A stretch of DNA of 64,000 bases from contig CAZDOJ010000001.1 in the NCBI GenBank assembly GCA_964507055.1, positions 913,313 through 977,312 of the forward strand, in the 5' to 3' direction. The stretch comes from an uncultured Gammaproteobacteria bacterium. GTDB taxonomy: Bacteria > Patescibacteriota > Microgenomatia > Levybacterales > UBA12049. A model generated the notes under the pieces. That model worked only from the letters and a program-made list of their open reading frames with translations. It made no database searches and had not been told where the DNA came from. Shown here piece by piece: positions 17,271-60,556 of this stretch (position 1 is its first letter; every line of letters starts with the position of its first letter). The translations under genes and the position numbers were made by a program.

Positions 17271-17275
17271 CTGCC

Positions 17276-39600: not shown

Positions 39601-40171
39601 CTCCTGCTGTGAAAACAGCATCGTCAACATAAAATGCATTACCTGCCACGGCTTGTTCCTGTACTACATAAAGTTCAACATTAGTCCTTCCCGAGGATTG
39701 GATCGACATAGTGGAGGTAACTAACTGCCACGAGGTTGTAATATAAACAGGTTGGCCATAAACAGTTCTACTTGCGGAAGACCCACCATTCTCGCGAATA
39801 GCAACATATACTGGCTTACCTGTATTAGAATCCCCACGCACATAGACAGCACCGCTGAATTGTTGACCTACTTGAGGATTTGCAATTGATCCAGCAAATT
39901 GCATCGTGTAGAGATTTCCTGTGGACTGAGTAGCCTTGCACGATCCTGCACCAGAACGAACAGGACTAGTAACACGAGAGATTGTAGCTTGATATCCTGT
40001 AATTCCTGACGTATTTGTGTCGCATGTAGGATTTTGCAATACATTAACGACTGCTGCCCGTGTCCCCGTAAAGAAATCCGAAAACGAAATAATCCCAAGG
40101 AATGTAATGAGAAATGCACTTAGGAAAAACAAAAATGTATGGTGTCTTTTATTAAAGTCTATTTTAAGCAT
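36680..40171 (-). CDS. giant surface protein (1163 aa): signal anchor, CBM4/9-like module, second beta-sandwich, malectin-like domain, DUF2341, LamG/ConA-like lectin domain, C-terminal beta-rich region
   Basis: The N-terminal CBM is paralogous to that of the 10987..12750 peptidase (SGAGSCKAT...AFYVDDAVF). The malectin-like module is paralogous to that of the 8839..10878 hydrolase (LVKAINFNGPQLDVDGVTFQAQ...GGDFNLSGIEVY). DUF2341-like block WDPKWLSRRKITIN...LWVKVPQIDANSNADFIWMYY. LamG block GKIDEVRVSSIARSADWIEAEY. Confidence 0.6.
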   Translation of the reverse strand: MLKIDFNKRHHTFLFFLSAFLITFLGIISFSDFFTGTRAAVVNVLQNPTCDTNTSGITGYQATISRVTSPVRSGAGSCKATQSTGNLYTMQFAGSIANPQVGQQFSGAVYVRGDSNTGKPVYVAIRENGGSSASRTVYGQPVYITTSWQLVTSTMSIQSSGRTNVELYVVQEQAVAGNAFYVDDAVFTAGATAIEPTNTPSTRENFVQNWSFEQGTANWFLQKRGSANGTFTATNSTSTHGAYSAQVAVTATTTDPHDLELATYGIPVTSGKTYTLSFWAKASNNRTIDAVVQDADEPYTLYTRKTPSLNTNWQQFTYTFQATETKSNALVGFQVATATGTVWVDDVQLYEGTPSSTLPVQTLVKAINFNGPQLDVDGVTFQAQSTAGITTNGANFQNQGITLNPSVSTNKAQMIRSSIWRSNNVQLTVDIPIANGDYSVYVYTWEDTTSTTYNLGFEGIAKASNLESGSAGTWKKLGPYHVTVSDGSLSLFQSGGDFNLSGIEVYTSDGISAEEPTTDWWDPKWLSRRKITINNTASAESLVNFPLRVSLNSTNIDYAKTQNLGQDVRFVDADGVNVLSHEIERWDETGTSDLWVKVPQIDANSNADFIWMYYNNSTATDGQNAANVWNSSYAIVTHLNDGNISTVTDSTSNRNNGTKLVSASQPSDFTTGKIGHALDFAGGKVANTGISIPSSPASIVGLTNASYTFSAWVNPDTIPDNTGLSDYAIIGRRGNFSGLSYVNGQYYLATGRNTTSSAFVTKSEPTVFPTGNWAYVVQTIDSVAKSIKLYVNGVLLDSSTYSGTLRNYTSSEPYMIGRADPNGACSSGNYAWCMDGKIDEVRVSSIARSADWIEAEYASDSNSMNTFGNEESRNGTVTTLPGDISNLNYYLTNFNPWMQVQCGELRMDNGIDNPVPAGKTMMTSDVTCGTPGIIYSGDSQASFGTGQSSSTNQVVGGYSYPEVYVPSNSGGIFSSYNYLSSKVKASDTTPTNLSTICTLSNCTLPASLPQGTYTATGDVFLNGFTFPANQHYVFIIDGNLTIKGNILTPVGSTVVFSVSGNIIVPPAVGSAPTATTTNLAGIFSTDKSFIMQSTNSCADLRLNLAGVLIVNAAQTGGALQNNRDLCGNNIENPSLQIVQRLDFVVNLPELVRIQSITSNEVAP

Positions 40172-40173
40172 AA

Positions 40174-43229: not shown

Positions 43230-45638
43230 TTAGGAGATATCTGCGTGAAGTGCACCAGTTCCGTCGATTGTAAAGTTTACTTTCTTGCCTCGATCGATTT
43301 CTTTGGTCAATCGTTTCTGAGCAATCATATCTTCAACAGTATCCTGTAAATATCGACGTAACGGTCGAGCACCAAAATCTTTATCAAATCCTTCTTGCGT
43401 AATCTTTTCGATGACTGCATCATCAAAAGAAAGTGTAATATCTTGTTTTGCTAATGATTCTATCAGCTGATCGAGTAGCAGCTTTGTCACTGCGATCACT
43501 TGTTCCGGACCAAGTGGTTTAAATGTTACAACATCGTCAAAACGATTAAGTAATTCTGGTTTGAAAATGCCTTTTGTTTGTAGTTGTTCCAAAAGACGTT
43601 GCTCAAATTTCTTATCTATTGGTGTACCCTTTTCAACTTCTTCACGGATGAACTCAGATCCTGCATTTGATGTTGCGATGATAATAGCATTACGGAATGA
43701 AACAGTCGCTCCTTTATTATCTGTTAATCTTCCATCATCAAGCACTTGAAGGAAGAGATTGTGAATAGCAGGATTTGCTTTCTCAAATTCATCAAGAAGG
43801 ATAAGCGAGGCTGGATTATCATGGATTTTATCAGTCAATTGTCCACGATCTTCTCCTTCACCAGGAGCAGCTCCAAGAAGTCGTTTCAATCCATTTTCAT
43901 CTGTATATTCACTCATATCCAAACGAATCATTCGTTGTTCACCACCATAATAGAACTGTGCCAGTGCTTTCGCTGTTTCTGTTTTACCAACACCAGTTGG
44001 TCCCAAGAAAAGGAATGAGATTGGCCGTTCGCTTGTCGTCATCCCAGAGCGAATACGACGCATTGCTTCACTTATTGCAACAACTGCCGTATCTTGTGCG
44101 ATAACTCGTTCATGCAATTTATCTTCCAAATGCAATAATAAATTAATCTCCTGGCCTGTAGGAAGTGCTATGGCGACATGACTTGTTGCTTCTACTTTCT
44201 TTACAACATCTTGCTCACTGACCATTTTGCGATGCGTCTTTTCAAAGGCAGGTCGTTCTTTTTCCTGAGAGACAGCATTGGCTACAGTTTCGAGCAATGA
44301 TACGGCACTTCCCGGAAGTACTTGATCTTGGAAGAACCGTTCTGCTAGCTCAACGGCACTTACAAGTGCTCGATAACTTATAATTACTCTATATTTATCT
44401 TCAATTTTTGCAGCCTCGCCTAACGCCATTTGAATAGCATCCGCAGGCTCAACAGGTTTTAATTCAACAACGGTAAAGGCTTCTTTCAGAGGATTTTTTT
44501 CCATATATTTCTTGTACGTACCAGTTGTCATCGTCGCAACCATGGGAACATTACCGCTTTTTAGATATGGGAGAAGAGCTCCTGAAAGATCCAAACCATA
44601 AGAAGTCGCTCCAAGAATATTTTGGAAATCAGGAATATACATGAAGACATCATTGGCATGAGATATTTCAGCAATAATGTTTTGCAGTCGTGCTTCAAGA
44701 TCATTTCTATTTCCAGCACCCGCAGTCAAAGCACCTACTAATAATTGAAAGATTCGCTTGTGATTCAAATAACCACCCAAATTGCCACTAAAGCTGTGAT
44801 ATGCCAATGCTCTTACTAAATTCTCTTTTCCTGCACCGATATCTCCCACGATCAAAACATTATTATTTTCAATTTTGGTGAGACCTTCAAGCATTGTTTT
44901 AAATTCTGCTTCTCTGCCACCAATATGCGGTTCTGTCTGCAATGCATAATTTGTAAACAGAGCTGTATATTTCTTTGTCTCTGGTGTCCATCCGGAATTG
45001 AGTGCTTCACCGATACCACTTCCAGTAAATTTGATTCGTACAGGTTTGGGATTCTCTTCATCTGGCATATCAAGTCGAACCCAATACAGAATATTGTACA
45101 GATCAGTTATTTTAAGTTGCTTTGCAAAAAGAATCTTTGTGTCTTTTTCAATTAAGAATAAATATGCTACAAGCACATCAAGAGTTGTTACATATTTCGC
45201 TTTAAAAGTTTGTGCTGTTTGAAATGCACTTTGGGCAAGAAGTTTTTTATCAACATCATTTACCACTAATTCTTTACTTGTGATGTTGGCTTTTTGAAGG
45301 ACTAATTTTACTTGAGGGTAAGTGATTAAGCGTTTAATAAGCGTTGACGTATTTGGTTCTGTAATAAATCCATATAAAGCAGCGAGTGTAAACGATTCAT
45401 ACATATTTTCTTCTTTATTCTTTGACACTTCTATTGTTGGAACAGCACGACTCACTTTATAGTGAAAAAATACTTCAAACATTACAAACAAATTAAAAAG
45501 AAATACGCTAACCTTTGGAGGGATATCATATGCGATCTGATAAAGAATAAGCGAAAAAAGCATTGCAAAAATGACAAGCCTAATACTTCGTACAAGTGCG
45601 GTTCGATAAAAACGATATAGTCGGACAGATAATTCCAT
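43230..45638 (-). CDS. membrane-anchored Hsp100/Clp-family AAA+ ATPase with degenerate D1 and intact D2
   Basis: Two N-terminal TM helices (LVIFAMLFSLILYQIAY; VFLFNLFVMFEVFF). A Clp-N-like repeat. D1 Walker A degenerate (IVGDIGAGKEN) with no DE Walker B. D2 canonical ([34 protein letters not shown]). No ClpP-docking IGF loop. No M-domain. Confidence 0.7.
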   Translation of the reverse strand: MELSVRLYRFYRTALVRSIRLVIFAMLFSLILYQIAYDIPPKVSVFLFNLFVMFEVFFHYKVSRAVPTIEVSKNKEENMYESFTLAALYGFITEPNTSTLIKRLITYPQVKLVLQKANITSKELVVNDVDKKLLAQSAFQTAQTFKAKYVTTLDVLVAYLFLIEKDTKILFAKQLKITDLYNILYWVRLDMPDEENPKPVRIKFTGSGIGEALNSGWTPETKKYTALFTNYALQTEPHIGGREAEFKTMLEGLTKIENNNVLIVGDIGAGKENLVRALAYHSFSGNLGGYLNHKRIFQLLVGALTAGAGNRNDLEARLQNIIAEISHANDVFMYIPDFQNILGATSYGLDLSGALLPYLKSGNVPMVATMTTGTYKKYMEKNPLKEAFTVVELKPVEPADAIQMALGEAAKIEDKYRVIISYRALVSAVELAERFFQDQVLPGSAVSLLETVANAVSQEKERPAFEKTHRKMVSEQDVVKKVEATSHVAIALPTGQEINLLLHLEDKLHERVIAQDTAVVAISEAMRRIRSGMTTSERPISFLFLGPTGVGKTETAKALAQFYYGGEQRMIRLDMSEYTDENGLKRLLGAAPGEGEDRGQLTDKIHDNPASLILLDEFEKANPAIHNLFLQVLDDGRLTDNKGATVSFRNAIIIATSNAGSEFIREEVEKGTPIDKKFEQRLLEQLQTKGIFKPELLNRFDDVVTFKPLGPEQVIAVTKLLLDQLIESLAKQDITLSFDDAVIEKITQEGFDKDFGARPLRRYLQDTVEDMIAQKRLTKEIDRGKKVNFTIDGTGALHADIS

Positions 45639-46132: not shown

Positions 46133-49100
46133 CTATTCAATCTCTTCTTGTCGAGTCTGTGGAGCTACATAATTAACAGGTCTAAAACTGTTAGGAATTC
46201 CAGAGTAATTGTAAGCCGTTTGAGGAGACATTGCCGCACCATTTGAAGCGACTCCATTTGCAGGAGGTGGTGTGCTATCTACTGCACCATTCGGCAAACT
46301 TGTTGGTGCTGGCGTTTGGAATACAGGGCTCGTATTCTCTGCCTGAGCAGGAGCCGCAGGTGATGCCGGAGCAACTGGCACTGCTGCTGGATCATTCACA
46401 ACTGCACCAGCAGGGGCCGGAGCAACTGGTTCTGAACCTACAGGAGTATTCACTGGAGCATCAGCTGGAGTTGTTGAGTCTGTTGGTTGTTGAGATTGAT
46501 CTTGTGTCGAACCTTGTGCATCCTGCGGTGCATTAGGATCTGTTCCTTCGACAGGTTTATCTGTTGGAGGTTGATCTCCACCATCGGTAGGTTGTCCTTC
46601 TTGTGCTGCAGGTGCATCATCGACTGCGATATTCTTCACACCAGCTGTCTCGAGAACGAGAATAGCAATCTCATCCTTTTGTCCTGCAGCTGCCACCATA
46701 TCTTCAACCATCTTTTCTAGTTCCTCATATTTAACGGTATCCTTAACAGCCAATACTGCTGCTGCTAATTGATTGCCTTTTTGACTTGCTTCATTCAATT
46801 TCGCTTGAACTGATGTGTACTTCTCTTTATCAGATGGTGTCTCTGCTGTAACAGGATTATTGATAAGCAAGAGGTGCTTCTTAAAGTTACGCAGTGGTTC
46901 ATGTGCTAATTCTTCTTCGATAACTTTGAGAATCTCAGTAGCCAATGGATCGCCTGAGTCTTTTGCAGCTTGTAGTTCTTTCTGAATAGCTGCGATGTCA
47001 TCATCAGAAGTTATATCTGTAATTGCCAAGATCTTACTTGCAAGCTCATTATTCTCTTTCTTTGCCTTCTGCATCTTTTCATATACAAGATTAAACTGGT
47101 CTTTCACTTCAGGATCAGCGAGATAAAGTGGATTAATAAGCTGCTTTAGAACATTCTTGAATTTCGTGACAGGCTCTTCGTTGTGTGCTTCTTCCGCTTC
47201 TTCTACAAGCTCACTATTTACTGCTGCAAGGATATCTTCAGCCAAGCTATCTTCATTTTCTTTAGCAGCCTTCAAATCTGTCATCAAATCCTCAATTGCA
47301 GAATCGGAAGTTGTATCATTAACCGCGAGAATCTTAGTAGCCAAAGCATTTCCTCGTTGGCTCTCCATATTGAGTTTCTCATGGAGTTCCATGAACCGGA
47401 TCTTCTTATTATTATCTTTGATATCGTCAGGGTGAATGATTTCAAGAAGGATCTTTTTTAGCTTCAAAGACGCTTGGATCTGTTGTGCCATACTATTGGC
47501 AAGCTCAATAATTTCAAATGCTAAATTGTCACCCTTTGCCTTTGCTTCTTCAATCTGTTTACGCAATGTTTGAATCTGTTTCAAATCAGTAGAGACAGTC
47601 ACTTCTAAAATACTGCTTGCCATTGCATTCTTATCTGTTCGAGCTTGGATTAACTTGTCATGAAGGACAATAAATCGTGACTTATCAACTGTACTTGTAA
47701 TGTTGTCTGGATTTGCCAAGTTGATCAAAACAGTTCTGAACTGTTCATCAGATAATGGCATAACTGTTGCACCAGCTCCACCTTTGTTAAAGACGAACTC
47801 ATTTGTATTATCACTGTAATCAATAACAATCGTGTCCCCAGCAACAAATTTCTTTGAAATGATCGCTAATGCGATAGGATTCTCAATCGCTGTTTGGACA
47901 AGTCTTCGGAGAGGTCGAGCACCATAGACAGGATCATATCCATCTTTCGCAAGCTGATTGATAGCCTTTTCTGTGATCTGCAGATTGTAGCCTTGCTCTT
48001 TCAAAAGCTTTGCAGTCTTTGCGATCGCCAAACGTGCGATTCCAGCCATATGTTCTGGTTGCAATGGCTTAAAGATAACAACTTCATCAAAACGATTAAG
48101 GACTTCCGGACGGAAGAATTTAATAAGTTCTTCGCGAACTTTAACCTGCATATCCTTAAAGATTTTTTCAAACTCTTCTGGAGTTCTCTTTGCTTTTGAA
48201 TCCACGTTGCTCAAAAATTGCTGGATAATGCCACTTCCGATATTGGAAGTACAAATAACGATAGTATTCTTAAATGAAATTGTATTACCTTTGTTATCAG
48301 TCAAACGTCCATCTTCAAGCAGTTGGAGCAAGATATTAAATACATCAGGATGAGCTTTTTCGATTTCATCAAGAAGTACGATAGAATAAGGTTTCTTTCG
48401 AACAGCTTCAGTTAATTGGCCACCTTCTTCATATCCAACGTATCCTGGAGGTGCACCAATAAGTTTTGCAACTTCATGCTTCTCCATGTATTCAGACATA
48501 TCCATACGAGCCATTGCATCATCACGTCCGAAAAGAAGTTCTGCAAGTGTCTTTGCAAGTTCGGTTTTACCTACACCGGTAGGACCAAGGAATACGAAAG
48601 ATGCGATAGGGCGATTTGCTGCAGCTAAACCGATTCTTCCACGTCGTACAGCTTCCGAAACAGCACCAACAGCTTCTTCTTGATCAACCATTCTATGATG
48701 GATTCGGTCCTCAAGCTTAAGAAGCTTTTCACTTTCATCTTCAGTAAGCTTCGTAATTGGAATACCAGTCCAAGCACTGACGACTTTTTCAATATCAGCC
48801 TTTTTGATTGATGTATCTCCTCCACCACGATTACCACCGTCTATTTGGAGCTTAACTTCAGAAGCAGCTTCATCGAGAAGGTCGATCGCCTTATCTGGAA
48901 GGTATCTTTCACCAATATATTTTTTAGAAAGTTTGACACACTCTTTCAAAGCATCATCTGGGATTTGAATTCTGTGGAATTTCTCGTACTTTGGTCGAAT
49001 AACCTTAAGCATCTCGAACGCATTCTCTTCACTTGGTTCATCTGCAGTGACAGGCTGGAATCGTCGTTCAAAGGCCTTATCTTTCTCAAAATTCTTTCGA

Positions 49101-50428
49101 TATTCAATAGTTGTTGTTGCACCAATAAGCTGGAAATGACCACGTGCCAAATGAGGCTTGATGATGTTTGCTGCATTCATACCTTCACCCTCGCCAGTTC
49201 CCATCAAAGCATGAATTTCATCAATAAAGAGAATGATTCGATTATTTGAACCAAGTACCTCGTTAATAACACCTCGCATACGTTCTTCAAATTCTCCTCT
49301 GTGACTTGCACCAGCAACTAACGACGCCACATCAAGTTGGAAAATCCTTTTTTCCTGAAGATCTTTTGGAACTGCACCCTGTACAATTTTTTGTGCAAGC
49401 CCTTCGACTAATGCTGTTTTACCAACACCAGGTTCACCGATAATAATCGGATTATTTTTTGTTCTTCGAAGCAAAACATGGACCATACGATCAACTTCTT
49501 TATCACGCCCAGCAACGGGGTCAAGGCGTCCCGCTCGAGCTTCTTCAGTAAGATCAATACCATATTTTTCAAGAACTGTCTTCTTCCCAAAATTGCTATT
49601 AGGGTTTTTTGAAAGCTTCTCGACCATTTGCTCTTTCTTTAAGTTGTGCTTTTCCAAAAGTTTACCAGTGGTATATTTAGGATCAAAGAGTACTATTAAT
49701 ATATCTTCAGGTGCTATAAAGTTTGCTCCATGCATTTTTGCATCTCGATATGCTTGATCGAATACTTCTTGAGCGGTTTTACTCAGCGTTGGTTGGCCTT
49801 TATAAACCCCCATTTTTTCAGATGCTTGAATTTCTTTAGAAATTTGTCCACCATCAGCATTCATTTCCCCAAGCATTGCATACAACTGTTGGTCATAAAG
49901 AAGTCCAATAAGAACTTGATCAGGTTCAATGAACTGTTGCTTTATACGCTTTGTCTCTTCTTGAGCGTGTGTCAAAGCTTGTGTTGCACGAGGGTCAAGG
50001 TGACTGAGAGCTGAAAGATCCGATTGACCTGCTGCGGGATGTGCTGTTGCACCATCAGATCCTGCAGGTGCTTGTCCCGGTTGACCTGGCTGAGCAGCCT
50101 GACCTGGTTGTGCGTTTGGATCTGGTTGTCCTTGTTGTGGGTTTTGACCATCTTGAGATGCTCCTTGTTGTACTGGCTGACCGGAAGCATCGGTTTGAAC
50201 AGGAGCATTTGGATCAGCAGGACCTGATGAAACTGGGGTTTCGTTTGTCGGAGACTGTACTGCATTCGGATCAGATGGAGCCCCAGTTGGGACAGGAGCA
50301 GCAGTGCTTGCATTTGGGTCAGCAGGAGATTGAGCCTGTGTATTTTGAGGCTGATTTTGAGCACCATTTGGTTGAGGAGTTATACCATCTGGTTGATCTT
50401 TTTTCTGGTTAAAAATGTTTCCGAACAT
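46133..50428 (-). CDS. giant Hsp100/Clp-family double-AAA+ ATPase (1431 aa) with low-complexity termini and four C-terminal repeats of about 95 aa
   Basis: Clp_N repeats. D1 [17 protein letters not shown] / [11 protein letters not shown]2 [19 protein letters not shown] / [15 protein letters not shown] / GARPLRR. Only about 20 aa separate the D1 small subdomain from D2, so there is no ClpB or ClpC M-domain. No IGF/IGL ClpP loop. PQG-rich residues 1-140 and 1270-1431. Confidence 0.75.
46619..47776 (-). repeat. intragenic tandem protein repeats (4 x about 95 aa) in the Hsp100 giant; same family as in the adjacent membrane protein tail
   Basis: Units begin L[AI]NP or IIHP and contain GN.LA..IL.V.D.TS...I..L...L.AAK..GD.LA.EIL (residues about 898-1270). 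Confidence 0.7.
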
Positions 50429-50528: not shown

Positions 50529-53500
50529 CTAATTTTTAGCACTTTCGTCTTCTTTTTTATCATTCTCTGTTGCAGACAATTCTTGTGCTGATTCAGACTT
50601 ATTTGTATCGACTGTAATAGCAACTTTACCTTCTTCGTCTTTTTGCAATTCTGCTATAACATTCTTTCCGGCTTCTGCCTTGGCTTTTAAGTAGCCCATA
50701 ACTTCTTGTGATGAGAATCCTCCAAGCATAAGCATTGGCAATATCTCAGAGACCTTCTCCATTCCTTCTGCTTGCTTTTGCGTATCAGATGAACCGAGCA
50801 ATTCAATAGTTTCTTCTACCATCTTTACATCGGATTCGATCCATGCGATACGACCTGTTGCTTCACTACCAAATTCTGCAGGAACTGGAAGTGTTCTATA
50901 ATTTTCTTCCCATAGCTTTTTAACTTCTTCATAATCTTCATCAGAAACTGGTTGAAGTTTGTTATCTTCAGGAGCGATACTATCATCAGGGAGATGCTCA
51001 AGAATTGATTGAGCAACTGGTTCTCCCTTTGCGTTTGCATCTTTTAGTTTCTCACTAAGTTTTTCTATGTCATCTACTGAAGTAACATCTTTTGTAGCAA
51101 GAATCTCTTTTGCTAACTCATTTCCTTCTTCACTCGCCTTAGTGAGAGAATCATGTAATTCAGTAAATCGTTTCTTATCTGCCTCTACCGTCGACTTTGT
51201 AGGATCTGCAATCTGAGAAAGAACAGTCTTTACAGTATCAGATTTCTTCCCTTGAGCCTTCATTGATGCTCGAAGAAGAACCGCAGCAGTAACATTACCT
51301 TTCTGTTTTTCATCTAATAGGGTCTGGCGTACGTTCTCAAACTTAGATCTTTCAGTGCTATCTGTTATCGCTGAAGGATTTGCAATCTTACTAAGAACGC
51401 TTTGTACTTTCTCTATCTCTGCTGTCCGTGAAGCATCTTTCTTCAATGCTCTTGTTTCAAACTGTGCAATATCTCTCAGTTTTGGAACCTGTAAATTAAC
51501 CATATTGAATATTTCATTCGAGATTTGAGGAGCAGAGATAGTTGTATGATTTGTGACATTTGTTACATTTCCGAGAGAACTAAGAGGACTCTCATCTTCA
51601 TCATCAGCAGAACTCGAGCTTGAACCAGCTGAGCTACTTGAATCAGATGAATCTGTTTGCTCCATAGATGCAACCATAGTCTTTGCAGCATGAGTGGATG
51701 TTGTATTAACACTAATCTTATCTTCTTCGTCTGCAGCCAATGTCTTGGATACATCTTTCGCAGCATCCTGCTTTGCTTGGAGATACGAGACGATTTCATT
51801 TTGTGAAAAACCTCCAACCATAAGGAAAGGTAAAATGTTTGAAACTTGCTGCATACCTTCTTTGACTTCTTCCTCATTGGTTGACGAGAGTAATCCAATA
51901 GTTTCATCAATACTTTCGATATCATCTTTAATCCACTCTGATCGAGTACCAGCCATACCTTGAGGTACTTCGAGGTTTTGGTAGTTCTGCTTCCACATAT
52001 CTCGAACTGCCTGATAGTCTTCTTTACTAACATTCTGTACCCGATTAGTAGTAGGCAATGAAGCAGTCTTTTGTGCCAATGCCGCAACTTCTGCTGCCAC
52101 TGGTTCACCTTTTACTTGAGCCTCTTGAATCTTCTGTTGTAATGCCTCAATTTCAGACACTGATGTTTTATCACTTACTTTAAGAATTGATGTAGCAAGT
52201 TGGTTTCCTTGAGAGCTTGCTTTTTCAAGAGTTGCTTTCAATTTGGTAACAGCCTGTTTATCTGCAGTGTGTGTTACAGAACCAGGATTCGCCATCTGTG
52301 AAAGAACATTCTTAATTGATGAAGTTGCTTGAGCTTGTTGCTGTACTGTTGTTGAAACTGATTTTCCAAGATGAGTATTAGAGACTTGACTCAATTGCCC
52401 CTGAATCTTCTCAATTTCTTTATCTGATGTCTTATCACTTACTTTAAGAATTGATTGAGCAAGTTGACTTTTTTCTGTGGTCTTTGCCCCCTGGCTTTCT
52501 TTAACAAGCATTCCATTGAGCTTTGTCATCTTGTCACGATTAGTTACGTTCGCAAGTGAAGGGTTTGCCATTTGCTTTAAGGATTCACGCATCTGTTGAT
52601 TTGAGACTTGTGTATTGCGTTTCGCAGTTACGCTTGCAGCATTCATGATTGAGTTAGCAAGAAGATTACCTTTCTCATTATTTGTAGAGATATTCTCATG
52701 AATCTCAACATATCTATCTCTTTCTACAGTATTTGTAACTGATACCGGATTTGCGATTCTCTCAAGAGTCTGTGTCATTCGAGTAGTTTCTTGTTGCTTC
52801 GATTGGTCACGAGACATAAGAGCCGCATCGTATTTAGCAATGTCACGAAGACTAGGAACTTTAACATTTGCAGCACTGAGCACTTGGGCATTAACAGTTG
52901 CACTATTAATATTTGCCAATGGTATGGAGGTCGGCTGTGCAAAGGTTGCCTGCATATTCTGAACATTCAATTCCTTAGCTGCACCTGCAGGTCCAGGACC
53001 CAAATCCTTTGGTATTGCAAATTTCTTGGCAAAAGGTAATGCAATTGCGGCACCACCAGGAGATTCGGACTTACCACCGCCTCCAGGAGGTTGCTTATTC
53101 GTTGATGCCATATTAACAAGTGTTTTCATCACTGCTGTATCACCAGGAGCGAAATTGGAAGCATAATCCAGGAAAATCTGTAGCAAAATCCATGGAAGCA
53201 GAATAACAATCCACAACATGATAAGAGAAACAACATAAAGTGCGAAAGTTTCGATCAAGTTAACACTATTCGTAGGCGTAACGAACTGTCGTGGTCCACC
53301 AAGAAGAATATTAACAGCAGTAGGGAAGACAATTTGGCTTGCATTACCAATATTTGAATTAACGAATACAAGTGGGATCTGATTCTTCCAAAGATACACT
53401 AAACCATTAAGGAAGATCGCAAATAAAGGTGCATACAATAACCATCGGAAAAATTCTCCGATCCAGATCTTTGCTGTATTTCGAACAGGATAATAAAGGA

Positions 53501-54275
53501 GCAAGATTGGGAAAATTGGAGAAACAATAATGAAGAACCAAAGAATAATTTTTCGGACCAAAAGTAAGAAGACCATTACGAAATATGTCAGTGCAGTTAG
53601 TTTGGTCAATAAGAGAGAGATAAATGCAGACTCAGCATATTGATCCCCAAGCAAACGTAAACCTACAAAAGTTCGATAATCCCATCCTACATAAAGAAGA
53701 TCCTTTTGTGAGATACAATCCGGTGGACATGGATTATTGATATTTGAACGTAGAAAGAAACCTTGGATCAAATCGGTAAACTGATAGAAGAACTGCAGTA
53801 ACGAGTACGAGAATACAATAAGTAAGACAACAGCCACAAATCGTGGAATAAAACGCATGATTGTAAGACTTTTACCTCTGGTAATAATAATAACCATTGA
53901 GGTTGCAAGAATAACAACAAATAAGAGTGGTACTACGATATAAAGAACGATCAATGACCAATACTGTGCGATTGGATTGTTACTGTCATCGCATTGTCTG
54001 TCGGTTACACGATTTACACAAACCCAGTTGTAATTCTTCAACGTCCAGTCAAGAAAAAGTCCTGCACGAGCAGCGTTCTTACCGATAAATGTAACTTCAG
54101 GATCAATAACCCAAATAGACTGAGAGGCTGCAGAAGATCCAGTTGTAGGTTGCTGTTGTCCAGGCTGCAATTGCGTACCGGGACCAGGACCACCGGCAGC
54201 AAAAGTATTAGCTGGAGAAGAAAACGCGATAATCGCAAAAATGAACGTGAATAGAATGGACAGAATTCTTTTCAT
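50529..54275 (-). CDS. large polytopic membrane protein (1248 aa): signal peptide, Cys-containing exo-domain, about 7 TM, then a hydrophilic tail of about 870 aa built from two duplicated super-units. Tentatively VirB6/TrbL-like
   Basis: TM segments lie between residues about 105 and 370. A Gly-rich linker (PPGGGGKSESPGG) follows. The tail carries ANP...GN.LA..IL.V.D.TS repeats (ANPVSV, ANPSLAN, ANPGSV, ANPSAI, ADPTKS). The motif W..NY..L.VP...G....WI..D....EETI.LL.S.....EGM..VS.ILP.LM.GGFS is duplicated (755-842 and 1113-1205). Confidence 0.6.
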   Translation of the reverse strand: MKRILSILFTFIFAIIAFSSPANTFAAGGPGPGTQLQPGQQQPTTGSSAASQSIWVIDPEVTFIGKNAARAGLFLDWTLKNYNWVCVNRVTDRQCDDSNNPIAQYWSLIVLYIVVPLLFVVILATSMVIIITRGKSLTIMRFIPRFVAVVLLIVFSYSLLQFFYQFTDLIQGFFLRSNINNPCPPDCISQKDLLYVGWDYRTFVGLRLLGDQYAESAFISLLLTKLTALTYFVMVFLLLVRKIILWFFIIVSPIFPILLLYYPVRNTAKIWIGEFFRWLLYAPLFAIFLNGLVYLWKNQIPLVFVNSNIGNASQIVFPTAVNILLGGPRQFVTPTNSVNLIETFALYVVSLIMLWIVILLPWILLQIFLDYASNFAPGDTAVMKTLVNMASTNKQPPGGGGKSESPGGAAIALPFAKKFAIPKDLGPGPAGAAKELNVQNMQATFAQPTSIPLANINSATVNAQVLSAANVKVPSLRDIAKYDAALMSRDQSKQQETTRMTQTLERIANPVSVTNTVERDRYVEIHENISTNNEKGNLLANSIMNAASVTAKRNTQVSNQQMRESLKQMANPSLANVTNRDKMTKLNGMLVKESQGAKTTEKSQLAQSILKVSDKTSDKEIEKIQGQLSQVSNTHLGKSVSTTVQQQAQATSSIKNVLSQMANPGSVTHTADKQAVTKLKATLEKASSQGNQLATSILKVSDKTSVSEIEALQQKIQEAQVKGEPVAAEVAALAQKTASLPTTNRVQNVSKEDYQAVRDMWKQNYQNLEVPQGMAGTRSEWIKDDIESIDETIGLLSSTNEEEVKEGMQQVSNILPFLMVGGFSQNEIVSYLQAKQDAAKDVSKTLAADEEDKISVNTTSTHAAKTMVASMEQTDSSDSSSSAGSSSSSADDEDESPLSSLGNVTNVTNHTTISAPQISNEIFNMVNLQVPKLRDIAQFETRALKKDASRTAEIEKVQSVLSKIANPSAITDSTERSKFENVRQTLLDEKQKGNVTAAVLLRASMKAQGKKSDTVKTVLSQIADPTKSTVEADKKRFTELHDSLTKASEEGNELAKEILATKDVTSVDDIEKLSEKLKDANAKGEPVAQSILEHLPDDSIAPEDNKLQPVSDEDYEEVKKLWEENYRTLPVPAEFGSEATGRIAWIESDVKMVEETIELLGSSDTQKQAEGMEKVSEILPMLMLGGFSSQEVMGYLKAKAEAGKNVIAELQKDEEGKVAITVDTNKSESAQELSATENDKKEDESAKN
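50646..52868 (-). repeat. intragenic duplicated super-units (2 x about 330 aa) carrying the ANP/GNxLAxxIL repeat family in the membrane-protein tail
   Basis: Super-unit A is residues about 470-845 (VKVPSLRDIAKYD...). Super-unit B is about 927-1210 (LQVPKLRDIAQFE...). Confidence 0.65.
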
Positions 54276-54283
54276 AAATATGT

Positions 54284-54586
54284 TTAACTAAACCCAGGAA
54301 CTCTCAAGATATCAACGACTACTACTTGAATAAATACATAACCGAAAATAGCTAATAATAACCCGGTAATCGCATAAAAAATATAGCTTTTTCCTACGTT
54401 TACTCTTTGTGGGTCCCCTCTTGAAGTCATAATAGTATATCCTCCAAGGATGAGAGCAATGAGAGCAACCCCTCCTACAAAACTTAACCCAATAGGGTAA
54501 AACTCTTGAACGAATCCAATTGGATCATTCGGCAAGCATCCGAAGTCAGTTGCGACACGATCCAATGGGCATGTAGTTGCAGCCAT
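54284..54586 (-). CDS. 100-aa two-TM hairpin protein, VirB2/TrbC-pilin-like architecture (tentative), with the conserved C-terminal motif DILRVPGFS
   Basis: N-terminal 30 aa with two Cys (CPLDRVATDFGC). TM1 IGLSFVGGVALIALILGGYTIM. Short basic loop. TM2 IFYAITGLLLAIFGYVFIQVVVV. Start verified at 54586..54584. It lies 8 nt upstream of the 1248-aa membrane protein. A paralogous module forms the C-terminus of the 58892..60154 protein. Confidence 0.45.
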   Translation of the reverse strand: MAATTCPLDRVATDFGCLPNDPIGFVQEFYPIGLSFVGGVALIALILGGYTIMTSRGDPQRVNVGKSYIFYAITGLLLAIFGYVFIQVVVVDILRVPGFS

Positions 54587-54652
54587 ATATTAACACTAAC
54601 ATATATTGAAATCGAAACACAATAGGTTTTACTGAGGAAAGTATGTACAGAA

Positions 54653-55537
54653 TTAGAACCAGCTTTTTTTTGAAGACTCACCCTTTTCTTCTTTCAGAAG
54701 GTCTTCCAGGAGTTGTTTCTCTTTATGACCTAATTTCTTTGGAACAACAACTTTAATCTTTACATAGTGATCACCTTTGCCACCGCCTCTAAGTCGTGGA
54801 ACTCCACGTCCTGAAAGTCTAATTAGTGTTCCTGGTTGCGTCCCAGCTGGAACACGAATTTTAACATCGCCTTCAATAGTTTTGATAGAAAGTTCAACAC
54901 CTAATGCAACCTGCGGATAAGAAAGTTCTTCTTCTGTGACAATATCATACCCTTCGCGTCCAAACTTTTTATCAGGTAGTACATCAATCAGAACATCATA
55001 GTCATCAAATCGAATCCGTGAACCTCGATCAACACCGGCTGGAACTTTGATCTTTTGCTTTTTCTCATTAATTGTTACATTCTTTTCTGCACCATGAACG
55101 GCTTCATCAAAAGACACTGTGAGAGAATAAACCGGTCTTCGAGGACGTTGTGCTCCAAAACCTCCACCAAAAAATTGCTCAAAAATATCAAATGGGTCAG
55201 AAAATCCACCAAAATCAGCACCTTGACCGTTCGAAGTATATGTATAACTAAATGGACCTTGCTGTCCTCCAAATGGCCCTCCTCCACCGAATGGTCCTTG
55301 TCCTGCTCCTTGCTCAAAGGCAGCATGACCAAACTGGTCATATTGTTGGCGTTTTTGTACGTTTGATAAGACTTCGTAAGCTTTCGTTACTTCTTTAAAT
55401 TTAGCTTCCCCTTCTTTTGTCTTATTTCGATCAGGATGATATTGCATAGCAAGCTTACGATATGCCTTTTTTATATCATCAGCACTTGCACTTTTCGTGA
55501 GGCCTAATATTTCGTAATAGTCTTTGGAATCTGCCAT
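54653..55537 (-). CDS. dnaJ: DnaJ-family co-chaperone (J-domain plus G/F region plus C-terminal domains; no CxxCxGxG zinc-finger module)
   Basis: [33 protein letters not shown] (HPD). G/F-rich stretch. 294 aa. Confidence 0.8.
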
Positions 55538-55600
55538 AGGTCATTATTATACTAAAAAAGCGCTCCTCGCGCCCTTTTCTTATTTATATCTAGACTGCAA

Positions 55601-57514
55601 TTAATCTACAACTTCGCCTTCCGCTGCTTTGTCTTTTTTATCTTTATCTTTTGGTTCTCCTTCAGCCGGTTCACCGTCTTTTTCTTCTTTCTCTATTTCT
55701 TCTGTATTTTGTGCTTGCTGTCCTTGTGCATATGCAGCTTCACCAATCTTTGAAAGCGTATCTGAAAGCTCTTTCGTCTTTGCTTCAATATCTTCTTTGC
55801 TACCAGTTTCTAGGATGTCTTTCAGTGCTTTAATCTTTTCTTCAACCTCAGTCTTTATCTCTGCTGGGACTTTGTCTCCGCCATCTTTCAATGATTTTTC
55901 TGCTGTAAAGATAAGTGCATCAGCATGATTTTTTGCTTCAATTACTGCTTTTTTCTCTTCGTCTTCTTTTGCATGAACTTCAGCATCTTGTGTCATCTTT
56001 TCTACTTCTTCTTTCGAAAGTCCTGTTGAACCAGTAATCTTAATACTTTGTTCTTTGCCTGATGCTTTATCTTTTGCTGTAACACTTACAATACCACTCG
56101 CATCAATATCAAATGTAACTTCAACTTGTGGAACACCTCGAGGTGCTGGTGGAATACCATCAAGAATAAACCGTCCAAGTGATTTATTATCTGCCGCCAT
56201 TGGACGTTCTCCCTGAAGAACATTAATTTCAACTTGTGTTTGATTGTCTGCTGCGGTTGAGAATGTCTGAGACTTTGATGTAGGAATTGTCGTATTTCGG
56301 TTAATTAATGGTGTTGAAACGCTTCCCAAGGTTTCAATTCCGAGCGTTAATGGAGTTACATCCAAAAGGAGGACATCTTTTACTTCTCCACCAAGAACAC
56401 CCGCTTGTACTGCTGCTCCTACTGCTACTACTTCGTCGGGATTTACTGATCGATTTGGTTCTTTACCAAAGAACTTTGTAACTGCATCAACAACTTTTGG
56501 CATACGAGTCATACCACCTACCATGATGACTTCATCGATTTCTGACTTTTGCTTCCCTGCATCACTTAATGCTTTTTCGACAGGTTTGAGTGATTTTTGG
56601 ATAAGATCATCGACAATTTGCTCAAGCTTTGCTCGAGTCAAAGTCATTGTTAAATGAAGTGGACCATCTTTGCCTTGTGTAATAAATGGCTGATTAATTT
56701 GTGCTTCTTGTGAAGTAGAAAGTTCGATCTTTGCTTTTTCAGCAGATTCTTTCAATCGTTGCAATGCTTGTGGATCTTTTCGAAGATCGATATTGTTTTC
56801 TTTATTAAATTCTTCAGCGATGTAATCGATAATTTTCTTATCGAAATCATCTCCACCAAGATGTGTATCACCATTTGTTGATTTCACTTCGTAGACACCT
56901 TCACCAAGTTCAAGGATTGAGATATCAAATGTACCTCCACCTAAGTCATAAACTGCGATTGTATGTGCGTTCTTTTTATCCAAACCATATGCAAGTGCTG
57001 CTGCTGTAGGTTCATTAATAATACGAAGGACTTCAAGACCTGCAATCTCACCTGCTTGTTTGGTTGCTTGACGCTCACTATCATCAAAGTACGCTGGCAC
57101 TGTAATAACAGCTTGTGTTACTTTATCACCGAGATATGATTCTGCGTCCGCTTTGATCTTCTGGAGAATCTGTGCTGAAAGTTCTTGTGGAGTGTAAGTC
57201 TTTCCATCAACTTCAACAACAGCCATATCATCACGACCTGCTTTAATTGTGTATGGAAGCCATTTAATATCTTCCTGAACTGTTGGGTCGTTGAATTTCT
57301 TACCCATTAATCTTTTGATAGAGAAGATTGTCTGTTTTGACTTCAAAACTAATTGTCTTTTCGCTACATCTCCAACCACATGAGATTTTGGATCTACGAC
57401 TGATGGTATAGTGTTGCGACCTTCTGCAGAGTGGATTACTTTTGGTGCTCCACCTTCCATAACGGCTACACATGAATTTGTTGTTCCTAAATCAATACCA
57501 ATTATTTTTCCCAT
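55601..57514 (-). CDS. dnaK: molecular chaperone DnaK (Hsp70)
   Basis: [33 protein letters not shown] and other Hsp70 signatures. Acidic C-terminus. Confidence 0.95.
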
Positions 57515-57526
57515 AAATTTCCTTTC

Positions 57527-58000
57527 TTAGTTCTTTTCAGAACCGACAGTCACTTGTGCTGCCCGTAATAATTTTTCGTTAAGCATAAATCCTACTCGTG
57601 TTTCTGAAACCACTTTGCCTTCTTTTCCTTCTTCGGTCGCAATTGCCTCCATTATTGATGGATCGAAGTCTTTGCCGATAGTTTCAATTTTTGTAACCCC
57701 TTCGGATTTTAAGATATCAAAGAAATGATTTGTGGTCACTTCTAGATTTTTATCTTGAACATGCTGTTGAGCAAGTAACAGTGTATCTAAAACTGTCAAA
57801 ATTCTCAAGAGCAAATCTTTGTTTGCTGATCTTATTAATTCTAATCGTTCGTCTGACGTTCGCTTTTGCAAATTTTGATAATCAGCAAGAGCTCTCTTAT
57901 ATTTGTTCTCTGACTCTTCCAATCGTTGCTCTAACTCTTCAATCTCTTTCGAGACTTCATCTACTTCTTGATCTTGTTGTGTTGTTTCGTCTTGTGTCAT
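57527..58000 (-). CDS. grpE: nucleotide exchange factor GrpE
   Basis: YKRALADYQNLQKR...VGFMLNEKLLRAAQV. Confidence 0.85.
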   Translation of the reverse strand: MTQDETTQQDQEVDEVSKEIEELEQRLEESENKYKRALADYQNLQKRTSDERLELIRSANKDLLLRILTVLDTLLLAQQHVQDKNLEVTTNHFFDILKSEGVTKIETIGKDFDPSIMEAIATEEGKEGKVVSETRVGFMLNEKLLRAAQVTVGSEKN

Positions 58001-58018
58001 GATCGTAATCCAATTATT

Positions 58019-58750
58019 CTACCAGCCCTTTGCACTCGTTTCAATAAGATCAGAGAAGTATCGAACTGTTGGAATAATTGTCGTATAGCGTAGACGTGCT
58101 GGTCCCAGTACTCCAATTCTTCCTTTTACATTCAATGGTGTTGTATATTCTGTGAATATAAACCCATATGGTCCACGAAGTCGTGTACCAAGCTCATCTT
58201 CAATTAAGATATGTACTTCTTCATCATCATGAACTGTTGCAAATATCGTTTCAAAGTTATCATATTCATCAAGTGCTTCAAGTAATGTTTTGGTAACATC
58301 AATGTCGTAAAACTCAGGCATCTCCAAAATATTTGCATATCCTGAACAATAGATTTCACCTTCATTCGTTGTCGCAATCGCTAATGTATTCGTCTTTTCA
58401 GCAAGTGAGCGTGTTGTTTCTTTTAAGAAACGCTGCATGCGTTCTCGATAATCCCAAACTTTTTCTTTTAACGCAACTTCTTCGACAGTCGAAAGTTCTT
58501 TTTCTTTCATCAACTCTCTGACGTAGAATTTCATTCCCTGTGCTGTTGGCACACGTCCAGCTGATGAATGAGGTTTTTTGAGATAACCATACTCAGACAA
58601 TCGAACCATTTCGTTTCGGATTGTCGCAGGACTAGCACTTAAATTATGCTTTTTTTCAATTGTTTCAGATCCGACAGGATCAGCAGTTTCTATGTATTCC
58701 TCTATGATACTACGAAGAATCTCAATTTGGCGTTGCGTTAAGTTATGCAT
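58019..58750 (-). CDS. hrcA: heat-inducible transcriptional repressor HrcA (short, 243 aa)
   Basis: LTQRQIEILRSIIEEYIETADPVGSETI...IRNEMVRLSEYGYL (winged-helix N-terminus). First gene of the hrcA-grpE-dnaK-dnaJ operon. ATG verified at 58750. Confidence 0.8.
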   Translation of the reverse strand: MHNLTQRQIEILRSIIEEYIETADPVGSETIEKKHNLSASPATIRNEMVRLSEYGYLKKPHSSAGRVPTAQGMKFYVRELMKEKELSTVEEVALKEKVWDYRERMQRFLKETTRSLAEKTNTLAIATTNEGEIYCSGYANILEMPEFYDIDVTKTLLEALDEYDNFETIFATVHDDEEVHILIEDELGTRLRGPYGFIFTEYTTPLNVKGRIGVLGPARLRYTTIIPTVRYFSDLIETSAKGW

Positions 58751-58768
58751 ACTTTCAAACGAACAGAA

Positions 58769-58795
58769 TTAGCAATAATATATCACGAGTGCCAA
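58769..58795. promoter_or_regulatory. CIRCE-like operator (TTAGCAATA-N9-GAGTGCCAA)
   Basis: 15 of 18 positions match the consensus TTAGCACTC-N9-GAGTGCTAA with the exact 9-nt spacer. It overlaps the hrcA promoter and lies 18 nt upstream of the hrcA ATG. Confidence 0.45.
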
Positions 58796-58805
58796 ACACT
58801 GTCAA
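58777..58805 (-). promoter_or_regulatory. sigma-70-type promoter of the hrcA operon (-35 TTGACA, 17 nt spacer, extended -10 TGATATATT)
   Basis: Minus strand TTGACA at 58805..58800. TATATT at 58782..58777, preceded by TGA. The CIRCE-like dyad occupies the spacer and the -10, which is typical for HrcA-repressed promoters. Confidence 0.5.
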
Positions 58806-58891
58806 GCCCTCTCCTTACTATAAAAATAATAGCTGTTAACTAAATAGACCTTTCTATTGATTTTTAGTGAGGTATTTGTCATGCTGAACAG

Positions 58892-60154
58892 GTGAGAAAA
58901 TATTTAAACTTTGTTACTGTATTTCTTTCCTTCATGTCTTTCCTTCTCTTCTTTAGTGTTGCGTCTGTTTACGCGGGTAACGCCGGTGAAATGGACGAAT
59001 GTAGCACAAGTGGTGTAAATCTTAATGCTGACCAAACGTGCATGGCTGGACTTAAATGTAATACTACTGACTACGATGATGAAATAGCAAAGAGACACGG
59101 ATGGGGTTACATTGTTCTAGGTTGGGAAGGACTTTGCGTTAAAGAAAAATTTGTGGACTGCACATGTGCAGGTGGTGGTGGTAAGGCAGGAATCGGACAA
59201 AATGGGATAGAATGTCCTGGAAAACCAACGGTGTATTGCAGTGACAAAGATGATGCCTGTTATTCACAAGGCGGAGCAACTATTGATAGAGGCGAGATTA
59301 ATTTTAATAAGAACGATGCAGCGTATACCGATACTGCTATAAGAAATGTCGCATGTACGCCTGTAAAACCAGAAGCAACTTGTACATGTATCGGCAACGG
59401 GACAGTAAATGAAAATAACTTTAGCTGTACTGCACCTGACGGTACGACAGGTACTGGAACATGCAAAAGCCAATTTCAATGTCAGCCTAACGACGGACAA
59501 ATCATACCACAAGATCAAATTGAAAATGCTCGGGGTAATGTTGACGGAAGTCACGTATTAAAAAACATTAAATGTGACAGACCTATGGCAGAATGTACAT
59601 GTGATCCAAATGTTGCAGCGAATGGTTTTCATTGTACACAATTTGGAAAGACAGAAACAGACACATGTGATACGCCAGAACAAAAATGCATTACAGATCC
59701 AAACTCAATACTTCTCAACGGAGAATCTACAGAGAATCAGCTTTTTGGTGGTGCACCATTAAAAGGTATTAGATGTGAATTACCAAATTTAGCAGACAAA
59801 CAAAAGATCTATCCAACAACGCCACCTCCACCTCCTCCTCCTTGTCTTGATAATTTGAATCCAGAAGGCTGTCCGACATTCAGTACAGCAGTTGGTAAAT
59901 TAGGCACTAAACCTGAGGAATTTATTAAATCGCTCTTTGCTGTGCTCTTGAGTGTTTCTGGAGGTATCGCGATTCTTCTTATCATGAGAGCTGGTTATCA
60001 AATGATGACATCTCAAGGAGAACCTCAAAAACTTAATAATGCACGGGACCACCTCGTTGCTGCTATTGTTGGACTTATTTTTCTTATCTTCTCTTTTGTA
60101 ATATTGCAGATTATTGGTTTTGATATCCTCCGTCTCCCTGGTTTTGGCGGCTGA
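58892..60154 (+). CDS. secreted Cys-rich repeat protein, poly-Pro linker, C-terminal two-TM hairpin module paralogous to the 54284..54586 protein (ends DILRLPGFGG)
   Basis: GTG start (an ATG lies in frame at 58934). Signal peptide. About three Cys-rich repeats with C[TS]C motifs (DCTCAGGGG; ATCTCIGNG; AECTCDPN). PTTPPPPPPPC linker. Hairpin module about 45% identical to the 100-aa protein, including GY..MTS.G.PQ and DILR.PGF. Confidence 0.5.
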   Translation: MRKYLNFVTVFLSFMSFLLFFSVASVYAGNAGEMDECSTSGVNLNADQTCMAGLKCNTTDYDDEIAKRHGWGYIVLGWEGLCVKEKFVDCTCAGGGGKAGIGQNGIECPGKPTVYCSDKDDACYSQGGATIDRGEINFNKNDAAYTDTAIRNVACTPVKPEATCTCIGNGTVNENNFSCTAPDGTTGTGTCKSQFQCQPNDGQIIPQDQIENARGNVDGSHVLKNIKCDRPMAECTCDPNVAANGFHCTQFGKTETDTCDTPEQKCITDPNSILLNGESTENQLFGGAPLKGIRCELPNLADKQKIYPTTPPPPPPPCLDNLNPEGCPTFSTAVGKLGTKPEEFIKSLFAVLLSVSGGIAILLIMRAGYQMMTSQGEPQKLNNARDHLVAAIVGLIFLIFSFVILQIIGFDILRLPGFGG

Positions 60155-60184
60155 TTTATCTCTCCGTAATATTCAATACAGTTT

Positions 60185-60556
60185 ATGAAAATTCAGTTCC
60201 ACTCAAAAGAGAAAGACAGTATTGGCAAAAGAAAAAGATCAATTCTATTTTTGGTTATCGGCCTTATTTCGCTTTTTAGTTTGGGTTTTCTTGTCTATGC
60301 TATTGATCCAAATTTTCAAATAAACATCCTTACCCTTTCAATACCTATGCTGCCAATCTTTATGATCTTACTTTTTGCAACGCTTTTCTTTCTTGGCTCT
60401 TTTGCCTTTAAAAGCAAAACGCATGGTGTGCTTATTGGAGTTTTTGTCATTATTTACCTACTGTTCAGATTAAATCATCTTACGCATCCATTTTTCCTCA
60501 TTTTACTTTTTGCATTGTTTCTTACTCTTGAACTATTCGTTTCATACAGAAGATAA
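60185..60556 (+). CDS. small polytopic membrane protein (123 aa, about 4 TM)
   Basis: Hydrophobic ORF 30 nt downstream of the Cys-rich / hairpin fusion gene. Confidence 0.4.
   Translation: MKIQFHSKEKDSIGKRKRSILFLVIGLISLFSLGFLVYAIDPNFQINILTLSIPMLPIFMILLFATLFFLGSFAFKSKTHGVLIGVFVIIYLLFRLNHLTHPFFLILLFALFLTLELFVSYRR

Follow-up and report, generated by a model that had tools for sequence, protein, structure and literature searches.

What does a small protein with the two-helix build of a type IV secretion system (T4SS) pilin do within a heat-shock operon, and how is it related to a much larger protein, encoded across the hrcA promoter, that ends in the same kind of module? These questions are raised by a 64,000-nucleotide stretch of contig CAZDOJ010000001.1 (positions 913,313 to 977,312 of the forward strand; termed the window, with all coordinates given within it), where both pilin-family proteins are encoded on a chromosome of Levybacteria (Microgenomatia). 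The original prediction, made from the DNA letters, described three open reading frames (ORFs), and all three are present: one for a 100-amino-acid (aa) protein (54284..54586, minus strand), one for a 420-aa protein (58892..60154, plus strand) and one for a 123-aa mini-protein with four transmembrane (TM) helices (60185..60556, plus strand). The first two were read as two-helix hairpins of the VirB2/TrbC type with both ends outside the cytoplasm, and our profile searches (PF18895, PF04956, and NF045849) agree with this reading. At the level of sequence, these searches place both proteins among the VirB2-like hairpins of the patescibacterial pilin family PF18895. We call them the short and the long pilin, names that refer to family membership and not to a proven pilus function.

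The long pilin matches the Pfam family PF18895 (T4SS_pilin) with 33.9 bits, above the gathering cut-off of 26.6, and the family was also matched by all 30 short-pilin orthologs that were tested (best E value, 2.1e-7). The TrbC/VirB2 family PF04956, against which the original prediction had suggested a check, was not matched at the gathering score by either protein of the window: the long pilin reached 16.7 bits against a cut-off of 27.9, and the short pilin had no match. Weak matches were obtained for 9 of the 30 orthologs (best E value, 0.0051). Both modules of the window also weakly match the NCBIfam model NF045849 for the "pilin-like conjugal transfer protein" Mbov_0395 (19.4 and 28.1 bits, with a cut-off of 40). 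A tblastn search of plasmids returned 17 weak hits; 12 of them fall in genes with the annotation "pilin" or "pilin-like conjugal transfer protein," one of which has a gene for a VirB4-like ATPase in its cluster. Relatives of the long pilin have already been named "pilin" or "type IV secretion system pilin" by NCBI and JGI, and an exhaustive profile search collected 35,480 representative clusters of the superfamily at an E value of ≤0.001 (6,008 at ≤1e-10). PF18895 has been surveyed across Patescibacteria (PMC12102498), and "Ca. Southlakia epibionticum" cannot do without its VirB2-like pilins (PMC10633639, PMC12857230). The VirB2-like core of the original prediction is therefore right, but the prediction as a whole is only partly supported: cyclization of the proteins is disfavored and an informative neighbor gene was overlooked (both below), and the family is already curated and discussed for Patescibacteria (PMC12102498, PMC12857230).

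Within the window, a six-frame hmmsearch with the family profile found exactly two modules, the short and the long one, everything else having an E value of ≥0.6. The two proteins align over 94 aa, corresponding to residues 327 to 418 of the long pilin, with 38% identity (BLASTP; E value, 1e-23). Their paralogy is thus borne out, whereas the identity of about 45% first given for them is limited to two quoted helix segments. Elsewhere in the family, five public metagenome proteins (P0380, P0391, P0366, P0362, and P0364) contain 6 to 16 tandem T4SS_pilin hairpin modules per polypeptide, with P0380 packing 16 of them into 1775 aa; such "polypilins" cannot assemble in the fashion of VirB2 unless they are cleaved.

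The short pilin is composed of an N-terminal β-hairpin (containing Cys6 and Cys17), TM helix 1, the basic loop SRGDPQRVNVGK, TM helix 2, and the C-terminal segment DILRVPGFS. Its AlphaFold2 (AF2) model (pLDDT, 86) has a small β-hairpin, helices at residues 22 to 53 and 59 to 93 joined by an SRGDP loop, and a C-terminal coil, RVPGFS. The loop SRGDPQRVNVGK has a net charge of +2 and the N-tail one of −3. We found 236 database hits to orthologs, mostly of 97 to 100 aa and with 67 to 83% identity among the matches listed; the mean column identity in a 30-member alignment was 77%. A set of 78 loci, with one genome per species, comes almost entirely from metagenome-assembled genomes (MAGs) of Levybacteria/Levyibacteriota, and across these genomes the short pilin is as conserved as DnaJ (median identities of 62% and 63%, respectively). 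Among the public MAGs with this locus (L008 to L085), many bear the title "uncultured Gammaproteobacteria bacterium," and "Acidiferrales," "Sulfotelmatobacter," or "Lysobacterales" appears in a few. Such titles do not agree with the conserved gene content, which is patescibacterial, and probably represent placeholders or erroneous taxonomic labels.

A signal peptide is absent from the window's short pilin and from 56 of the 69 loci that could be classified, and a hidden one upstream of the window's gene is ruled out by three in-frame stops in the 66 nucleotides between the dnaJ stop and the short-pilin ATG. The other 13 orthologs, many of which are among the most divergent, possess a canonical Sec signal peptide. 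This peptide ends just before the first Cys (at a distance of 1 to 5 aa), which indicates that the N terminus of the short pilin is exported, and the distribution suggests that the signal peptide was lost in the window's clade. Lacking one, the window's copy would insert N-tail first, with helix 1 acting as a reverse signal anchor. The predicted topology places the hairpin in the cytoplasmic membrane, with the basic loop on the inner face and the two termini on the outer one; it is based on the signal peptide of the long paralog, on the even numbers of Cys residues in the external parts, and on charges that follow the positive-inside rule.

The most informative context, overlooked by the original prediction, is a gene with a predicted VirB6 fold directly downstream of the short pilin, starting 8 nucleotides past it. 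This gene (50529..54275, minus strand) encodes an extended VirB6-like protein of 1248 aa with a signal peptide and a five-helix membrane domain (residues 1 to ∼400; 52986..54275). We modeled its first 430 residues with AF2 (pLDDT, 76; pTM, 0.69), and the top seven Foldseek matches of the model in the PDB were all TrwI/VirB6 of the R388 T4SS, so that the membrane domain of the model has a VirB6 fold. The window's copy is not matched by the Pfam model TrbL/VirB6 (PF04610); this model matches 15 of 31 VirB6-like homologs at an E value of ≤0.01 (best, 2.5e-7), and for several database relatives a PF04610 or PF19590 label had been precomputed. In the 78 species-level genomes, the VirB6-like domain directly follows the short pilin in 74 out of 74 loci with enough downstream sequence. 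The evolutionary rates of the two also covary (partial r = 0.52 when controlling for DnaK), which is suggestive only, as the genomes are phylogenetically related. The pairing is mechanistically coherent, since a model for R388 has VirB6 recruiting VirB2 out of the membrane and acting as the base for pilus growth (PMC9259494). VirB6 homologs have been reported to be scarce in Microgenomatia, where extreme divergence has been suspected (PMC12102498), and we consider the 1248-aa protein a strong candidate for this missing component.

The tail of the VirB6-like protein, ∼820 aa long, carries a cassette that has been duplicated and in which a ∼90-aa repeat occurs about five times, and we infer that it is cytoplasmic because five helices follow an exported N terminus. 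The internal duplication of the cassette makes up the hydrophilic half of the protein (50529..52985), most homologs having 700 to 750 aa and a single copy, and the cassette terminates in a conserved segment, ...ILPFL[ML]xGGFSxxE[VI]xxYLKAK.... A phmmer search of the repeat tail against PDB sequences gave no match.

Upstream of the short pilin and on the same strand lies an hrcA-grpE-dnaK-dnaJ block (54653..58750, minus strand), whose genes were labeled through the Pfam annotation of an identical locus (L001): hrcA (58019..58750), grpE (57527..58000), dnaK (55601..57514), and dnaJ (54653..55537). In a consensus scan, the neighborhood's best sigma-70-like promoter, TTGACA-17-TATATT, was found on the hrcA strand (58769..58805, minus strand). 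It overlaps an operator resembling the controlling inverted repeat of chaperone expression (CIRCE), as had been predicted for this intergenic region; the operator, TTAGCAATA-N9-GAGTGCCAA at 58769 to 58795, has three mismatches and is the sole match in the window, where 0.03 would be expected by chance. The same type of scan detected no terminator-like or strong promoter-like site in the gap between dnaJ and the short pilin, and since no terminator follows dnaJ, the short pilin and the VirB6-like gene are probably co-transcribed with hrcA-grpE-dnaK-dnaJ. The CIRCE-controlled promoter would then drive all of these genes. The order hrcA-grpE-dnaK-(dnaJ)-short pilin-VirB6-like-ClpB-like is conserved in Levybacteria, dnaK being found upstream in 62 of 68 related loci, hrcA in 49 of 52, and a Clp gene downstream in 56 of 58. 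In one lineage (L004), the short pilin, the VirB6-like gene, and the Clp gene are kept together as a trio outside the dnaK operon.

The long pilin combines the hairpin with a large exported part. It comprises a signal peptide (residues 1 to 29), a Cys-rich variable domain (residues 30 to 310), a proline stalk (residues 311 to 317; 59822..59842), a Cys318-Cys327 loop, and the hairpin (residues ∼328 to 420). Several of these elements had been called correctly from the letters: the hydrophobic signal peptide (MRKYLNF...VYA, with G after the cut) agrees with the MRKY/MKKY signal peptides of homologs, the linker indeed has seven prolines, and the Cys-rich repeats are apparent from three C-T-C sites (residues 90 to 92, 164 to 166, and 235 to 237) as well as from similarity scores (z = 7.0 between the last two units and 3.3 to 3.4 between the first unit and each of them). 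The GTG start is supported by the MRKY/VKKY N termini of homologs. All 24 Cys residues precede residue 328. The idea that both proteins carry equivalent Cys mini-loops did not hold, as the Cys pairs are mutually shifted and their positions not homologous: C6 of the short pilin aligns with C327 of the long one, C17 has no Cys counterpart, and C318 of the long pilin lies upstream of the point in the alignment where the short protein begins.

We found 156 relatives of the long pilin, with 250 to 600 aa and several of them named "pilin," in which the C-terminal module is conserved (50 to 73% identity) and the N-terminal domains are unrelated or highly divergent. The nearest relative has neighbor genes that are 93 to 98% identical and a pilin module that is 84% identical to those of the window; in its N-terminal domain, the identity drops to only ∼35%, and two repeats are present where the window's protein has three. 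A phmmer search of the Cys-rich domain against PDB sequences gave no match. A long pilin divergent from hrcA is present in only 13 of 52 loci. Taken with the polyproline stalk and the paired Cys residues, the pattern of the N-terminal domain fits a surface-displayed, diversifying adhesin domain. The long form would use its hairpin as an anchor or a co-assembly module and display a disulfide-rich, rapidly diversifying domain on the polyproline stalk.

Both proteins end in DILR[VL]PGF, as predicted: DILRVPGF in the short pilin (residues 92 to 99; 54290..54313, minus strand), where it directly follows TM helix 2 on the outer face, and DILRLPGF in the long pilin (residues 411 to 418; 60122..60145, plus strand). 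Endings of the D[ILV]L[HKR][VI]PGF type were found in 120 out of 120 listed short orthologs, one of them with PYF, and the conservation of the motif columns ranges from 0.78 to 1.0. Of the long relatives, 72 of 120 have the motif, which is also present in 76 of the 115 best representatives of the 35,480-cluster superfamily. It lies just past the end of the Pfam model match. Since the DIL-x-PGF motif is absent from the tandem multi-module polypilins introduced above, it marks a large subfamily and not the whole family. Given its position and conservation, the motif most likely serves in interfacial packing or docking, a role that would let different subunits use one platform.

Combining these observations, we propose that the short pilin would be a major subunit and the 1248-aa VirB6-like protein its recruitment and assembly platform, with the long pilin as an adhesin-bearing minor subunit and the motif as the docking element; we judge this model reasonably probable. 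The roles of major subunit and platform are suggested by the strict pairing of the two genes and by analogy with VirB6 and VirB2 of R388. The long pilin would probably serve in a minor or tip position, as a surface adhesin in contact with hosts, or as a non-polymerizing anchor.

Several points weigh against this model. The short pilin of the window scores 23.6 bits with PF18895, just under the gathering threshold, and neither its sequence nor its fold matches any solved pilin significantly: its alignment profile, compared to all PDB sequences, yielded only chance matches to G protein-coupled receptors (E value, ≥0.75), and Foldseek searches of the PDB with the hairpin model were not discriminating, the best pilin being the Aeropyrum conjugative pilus (8dfu) at rank 2 with an E value of 1.2. 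We know of no filaments shown for the T4SS_pilin family. No homolog of VirB4, VirD4, VirB3, or VirB8 was found among the large ORFs of the window. A helical lattice of the VirB2 type would not accommodate a domain of 30 kDa on each of its subunits, so that the long pilin cannot be a stoichiometric one. Finally, the role of the motif is deduced solely from position and conservation, and co-transcription with dnaK solely from consensus scans.

The alternative that survives best is that the hairpins never polymerize and are instead accessory membrane subunits of a monoderm-type T4SS channel, the hairpin of the long form serving as a two-helix adhesin anchor. Such an accessory role is presumed for the "pilin-like conjugal transfer proteins" of Mycoplasma and Bacillota, whose model, NF045849, weakly matches both modules, and monoderm T4SSs are generally devoid of pili (PMC12102498, PMC12857230). 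A gene for an "Mbov_0395 family pilin-like conjugal transfer protein" is found on a Bacillota megaplasmid from Pontibacillus (NZ_CP062975.1, 351801..358115; L086), and the genes downstream of it in the cluster include those for a hypothetical membrane-sized protein of 779 aa and for a VirB4-like ATPase of the CD1110 family. Conjugation clusters of monoderms can thus contain pilin-like hairpins. The 779-aa protein and the VirB6-like alignment were compared with hhalign, which returned a probability of 16%. A non-polymerizing role would also agree with the polyproline stalk and large variable domain of the long pilin, which resemble a cell-surface display architecture, and with the existence of tandem proteins of up to 16 hairpins, which are incompatible with a VirB2-type lattice. 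However, the hairpin, the loop signature, and the strict pairing with a VirB6 fold are elements of pilus growth in diderm systems, and a plain anchor would not need housekeeping-level conservation over the helices, the loop, and the motif. We therefore regard a non-polymerizing hairpin as possible but doubtful and retain the short pilin as the candidate major subunit.

Directly downstream of the VirB6-like gene, a ClpB-like double AAA+ ATPase of 1431 aa is encoded (46133..50428, minus strand; Pfam and NCBIfam assignments). Its C-terminal extension (residues ∼901 to 1280; 46589..47728) contains four copies of the ∼90-aa repeat found in the VirB6-like tail, the two regions matching each other with an E value of 3e-17 (BLASTP). 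Within the window, the repeat, with a consensus of roughly L..[IL]ANP..[IV]T...[DE]K.RF..LH..L..A...GN.LA..IL.V.D.TS...I..L...I..AK..G[DE]P[LV]A.EI., is confined to these two proteins, and a repeat-bearing extension is found in 17 of 57 complete Clp ORFs, in the subclade nearest to the window. The shared repeat may be a physical link between both proteins or merely a local duplication. The ATPase is atypical in other respects: it has a Q/P/A-rich N-terminal extension of ∼150 aa, its scores with the ClpB, ClpA, and ClpV models are all under the cut-offs, and the ∼75 residues between the first AAA lid (to residue 530) and the second AAA domain (from residue 606) look too short for a full ClpB middle domain. 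A second Clp-like gene, for a protein of 802 aa, follows at 43230..45638.

One could also imagine that, in Levybacteria, the signal-peptide-less VirB2-like protein and the extended VirB6-like protein form a self-contained surface-filament or translocation module under heat-shock (HrcA/CIRCE) control, energized or serviced not by VirB4 but by the adjacent ClpB-like unfoldase, which would be tethered to the cytoplasmic VirB6 tail through the ∼90-aa repeat. We hold such a module to be improbable. If true, a coupling of Clp/Hsp100 to T4SS-type pilin machinery would be unprecedented and loosely comparable to ClpV of type VI secretion.

A different function of the DILRxPGF motif was raised by the original prediction, namely that of a processing or cyclization signal. 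A peptidase would cut at or after PGF, with subsequent head-to-tail joining, or the motif would be subject to sortase- or archaeosortase-like sorting. VirB2 and TrbC undergo cyclization, a sortase gene is present elsewhere in the window (17276..18007), and the motif lies near the C terminus, at 1 to 3 residues from it in all listed short orthologs; for 41 of the 72 long relatives with the motif, the distance is ≤5 residues. However, 28 of these 72 proteins extend for 8 to 106 more residues past the motif, and many of them have Cys-rich tail ends, from which we infer that the C-terminal side is extracytoplasmic. Head-to-tail joining is implausible in motif-bearing proteins with N-terminal domains of 200 to 500 aa, and this retention, together with the internal motifs, disfavors a terminal cyclization or trimming signal. 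No TraF/LepB-like peptidase adjoins either pilin gene. In LPXTG, PGF-CTERM, and PEP-CTERM signals, the motif is followed by a TM helix and then by a basic tail, the reverse of the order found here, where the motif comes after the TM helix at the protein end; no NCBIfam sorting-signal model matched at an E value of ≤0.01, and Pfam Gram_pos_anchor (LPXTG) matched only at ≥0.21. A sortase- or PGF-CTERM-type signal was rejected on motif order and on the lack of model matches, and processing in general appears quite improbable. We thus keep to docking or packing as the likely role of the motif.

The genomic position could also mean that the short protein and its giant membrane partner are not involved in secretion or adhesion but form a heat-shock or proteostasis device, acting in membrane stress or in quality control with DnaK and ClpB. 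The pair does sit behind a CIRCE-type operator and, in most Levybacteria, between dnaJ and the ClpB-like gene, at the frequencies of dnaK and Clp neighbors given above, and the repeat is common to the giant protein's tail and the ClpB-like extension. Yet both proteins have specific T4SS homologies, the trio has left the dnaK operon in the L004 lineage, the shared repeat is confined to a subclade (17 of 57 loci), and for the T4SS genes of Patescibacteria, residing in an operon with strong expression has been suggested to be an expression strategy (PMC12102498). A proteostasis device is, in our view, highly improbable. A holin-like or phage origin, the alternative family named by the original prediction, is rejected, as PHROGs gave nothing at an E value of ≤0.1 for either module or the 4-TM protein and no holin or phage family was matched. 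With the motif conserved among homologs as well, neither of the two outcomes that the original prediction had named as refuting it was observed.

The 4-TM mini-protein, encoded between the long pilin and the methionyl-tRNA synthetase gene (metRS), has no family in Pfam, NCBIfam, or PHROGs. Its gene does begin 30 nucleotides past the long pilin, as originally noted, but it travels with metRS and hrcA and not with the long pilin: it is conserved beside these two genes in 30 of 52 loci, most of them without a long pilin. A partnership with the long pilin was rejected on these grounds, and the mini-protein probably stands outside the pilin system. Farther away in the window, a downstream block on the strand of the short pilin (36680..43140, minus strand) contains genes for surface proteins with SdrD-B/VWA (988 aa) and LamG/CBM (1163 aa) domains, and a 786-aa ORF followed by the sortase gene occupies 14910..18007 on the plus strand. 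These genes suggest a rich cell-surface repertoire.

Among known systems, the closest are the PF18895 pilins of Patescibacteria. These pilins, for example the essential array of "Ca. Southlakia epibionticum," have the same hairpin module, the loop signature [AG]GY..MTS.G.P....G[KR] is shared, and the host is likewise a monoderm. Described arrays are multi-copy, have a mean identity of about 25%, and lie mostly near virB4 (PMC12102498), whereas the short form of the window is single-copy, conserved at the level of DnaJ, and located in the hrcA-dnaK operon beside a VirB6-like gene, with no virB4 found within 64 kb. Unlike the members of these arrays, it mostly lacks a signal peptide, and its DIL-x-[IV]-PGF extension falls outside the Pfam model. 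The VirB2/TrbC/TraA pilins of diderm bacteria (PF04956) share the two-helix hairpin, the basic cytoplasmic loop, the external termini, and the VirB6 partner (PMC9259494), but similarity to their hidden Markov model is sub-threshold, and the window locus has no outer membrane, VirB5, or VirB7-10 context. The long cleavable leader of TrbC and VirB2 is absent from the window's short copy and present on the long paralog. To our knowledge, fusion to large N-terminal domains is not a feature of VirB2/TrbC/TraA pilins. The Mbov_0395 proteins of Mycoplasma integrative and conjugative elements and of Bacillota (NF045849), which gave the best plasmid tblastn match, are likewise small two-TM proteins of monoderm T4SS clusters, but their genes belong to mobile elements with VirB4, whereas the context in the window is chromosomal and housekeeping. 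Extended VirB6 proteins are known from the VirB6 paralogs of the Rickettsiales Rvh system and from TraG of the F plasmid; the extension described here differs in being built from a ∼90-aa repeat that is specific to Levybacteria and recurs in the neighboring ClpB-like ATPase. What is new at this locus is a conserved single-copy form without a signal peptide, an invariable VirB6-fold partner, a site in the heat-shock operon, an external motif, and a hypervariable fusion paralog.

The sole genetically tractable patescibacterium depends on pilin-containing T4SS-like machines for its epibiotic life (PMC10633639, PMC12857230). For Microgenomatia, the locus supplies a clear VirB6-fold candidate together with an adjoining single, highly conserved candidate major subunit. 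The conserved external motif offers a target for mutation, and the hypervariable, adhesin-like paralog could explain host specificity. Finally, the position behind a CIRCE-like operator and the repeat shared with the ClpB-like protein suggest that, in organisms with minimal genomes, envelope machinery and the chaperone network may be linked in ways that can be tested.

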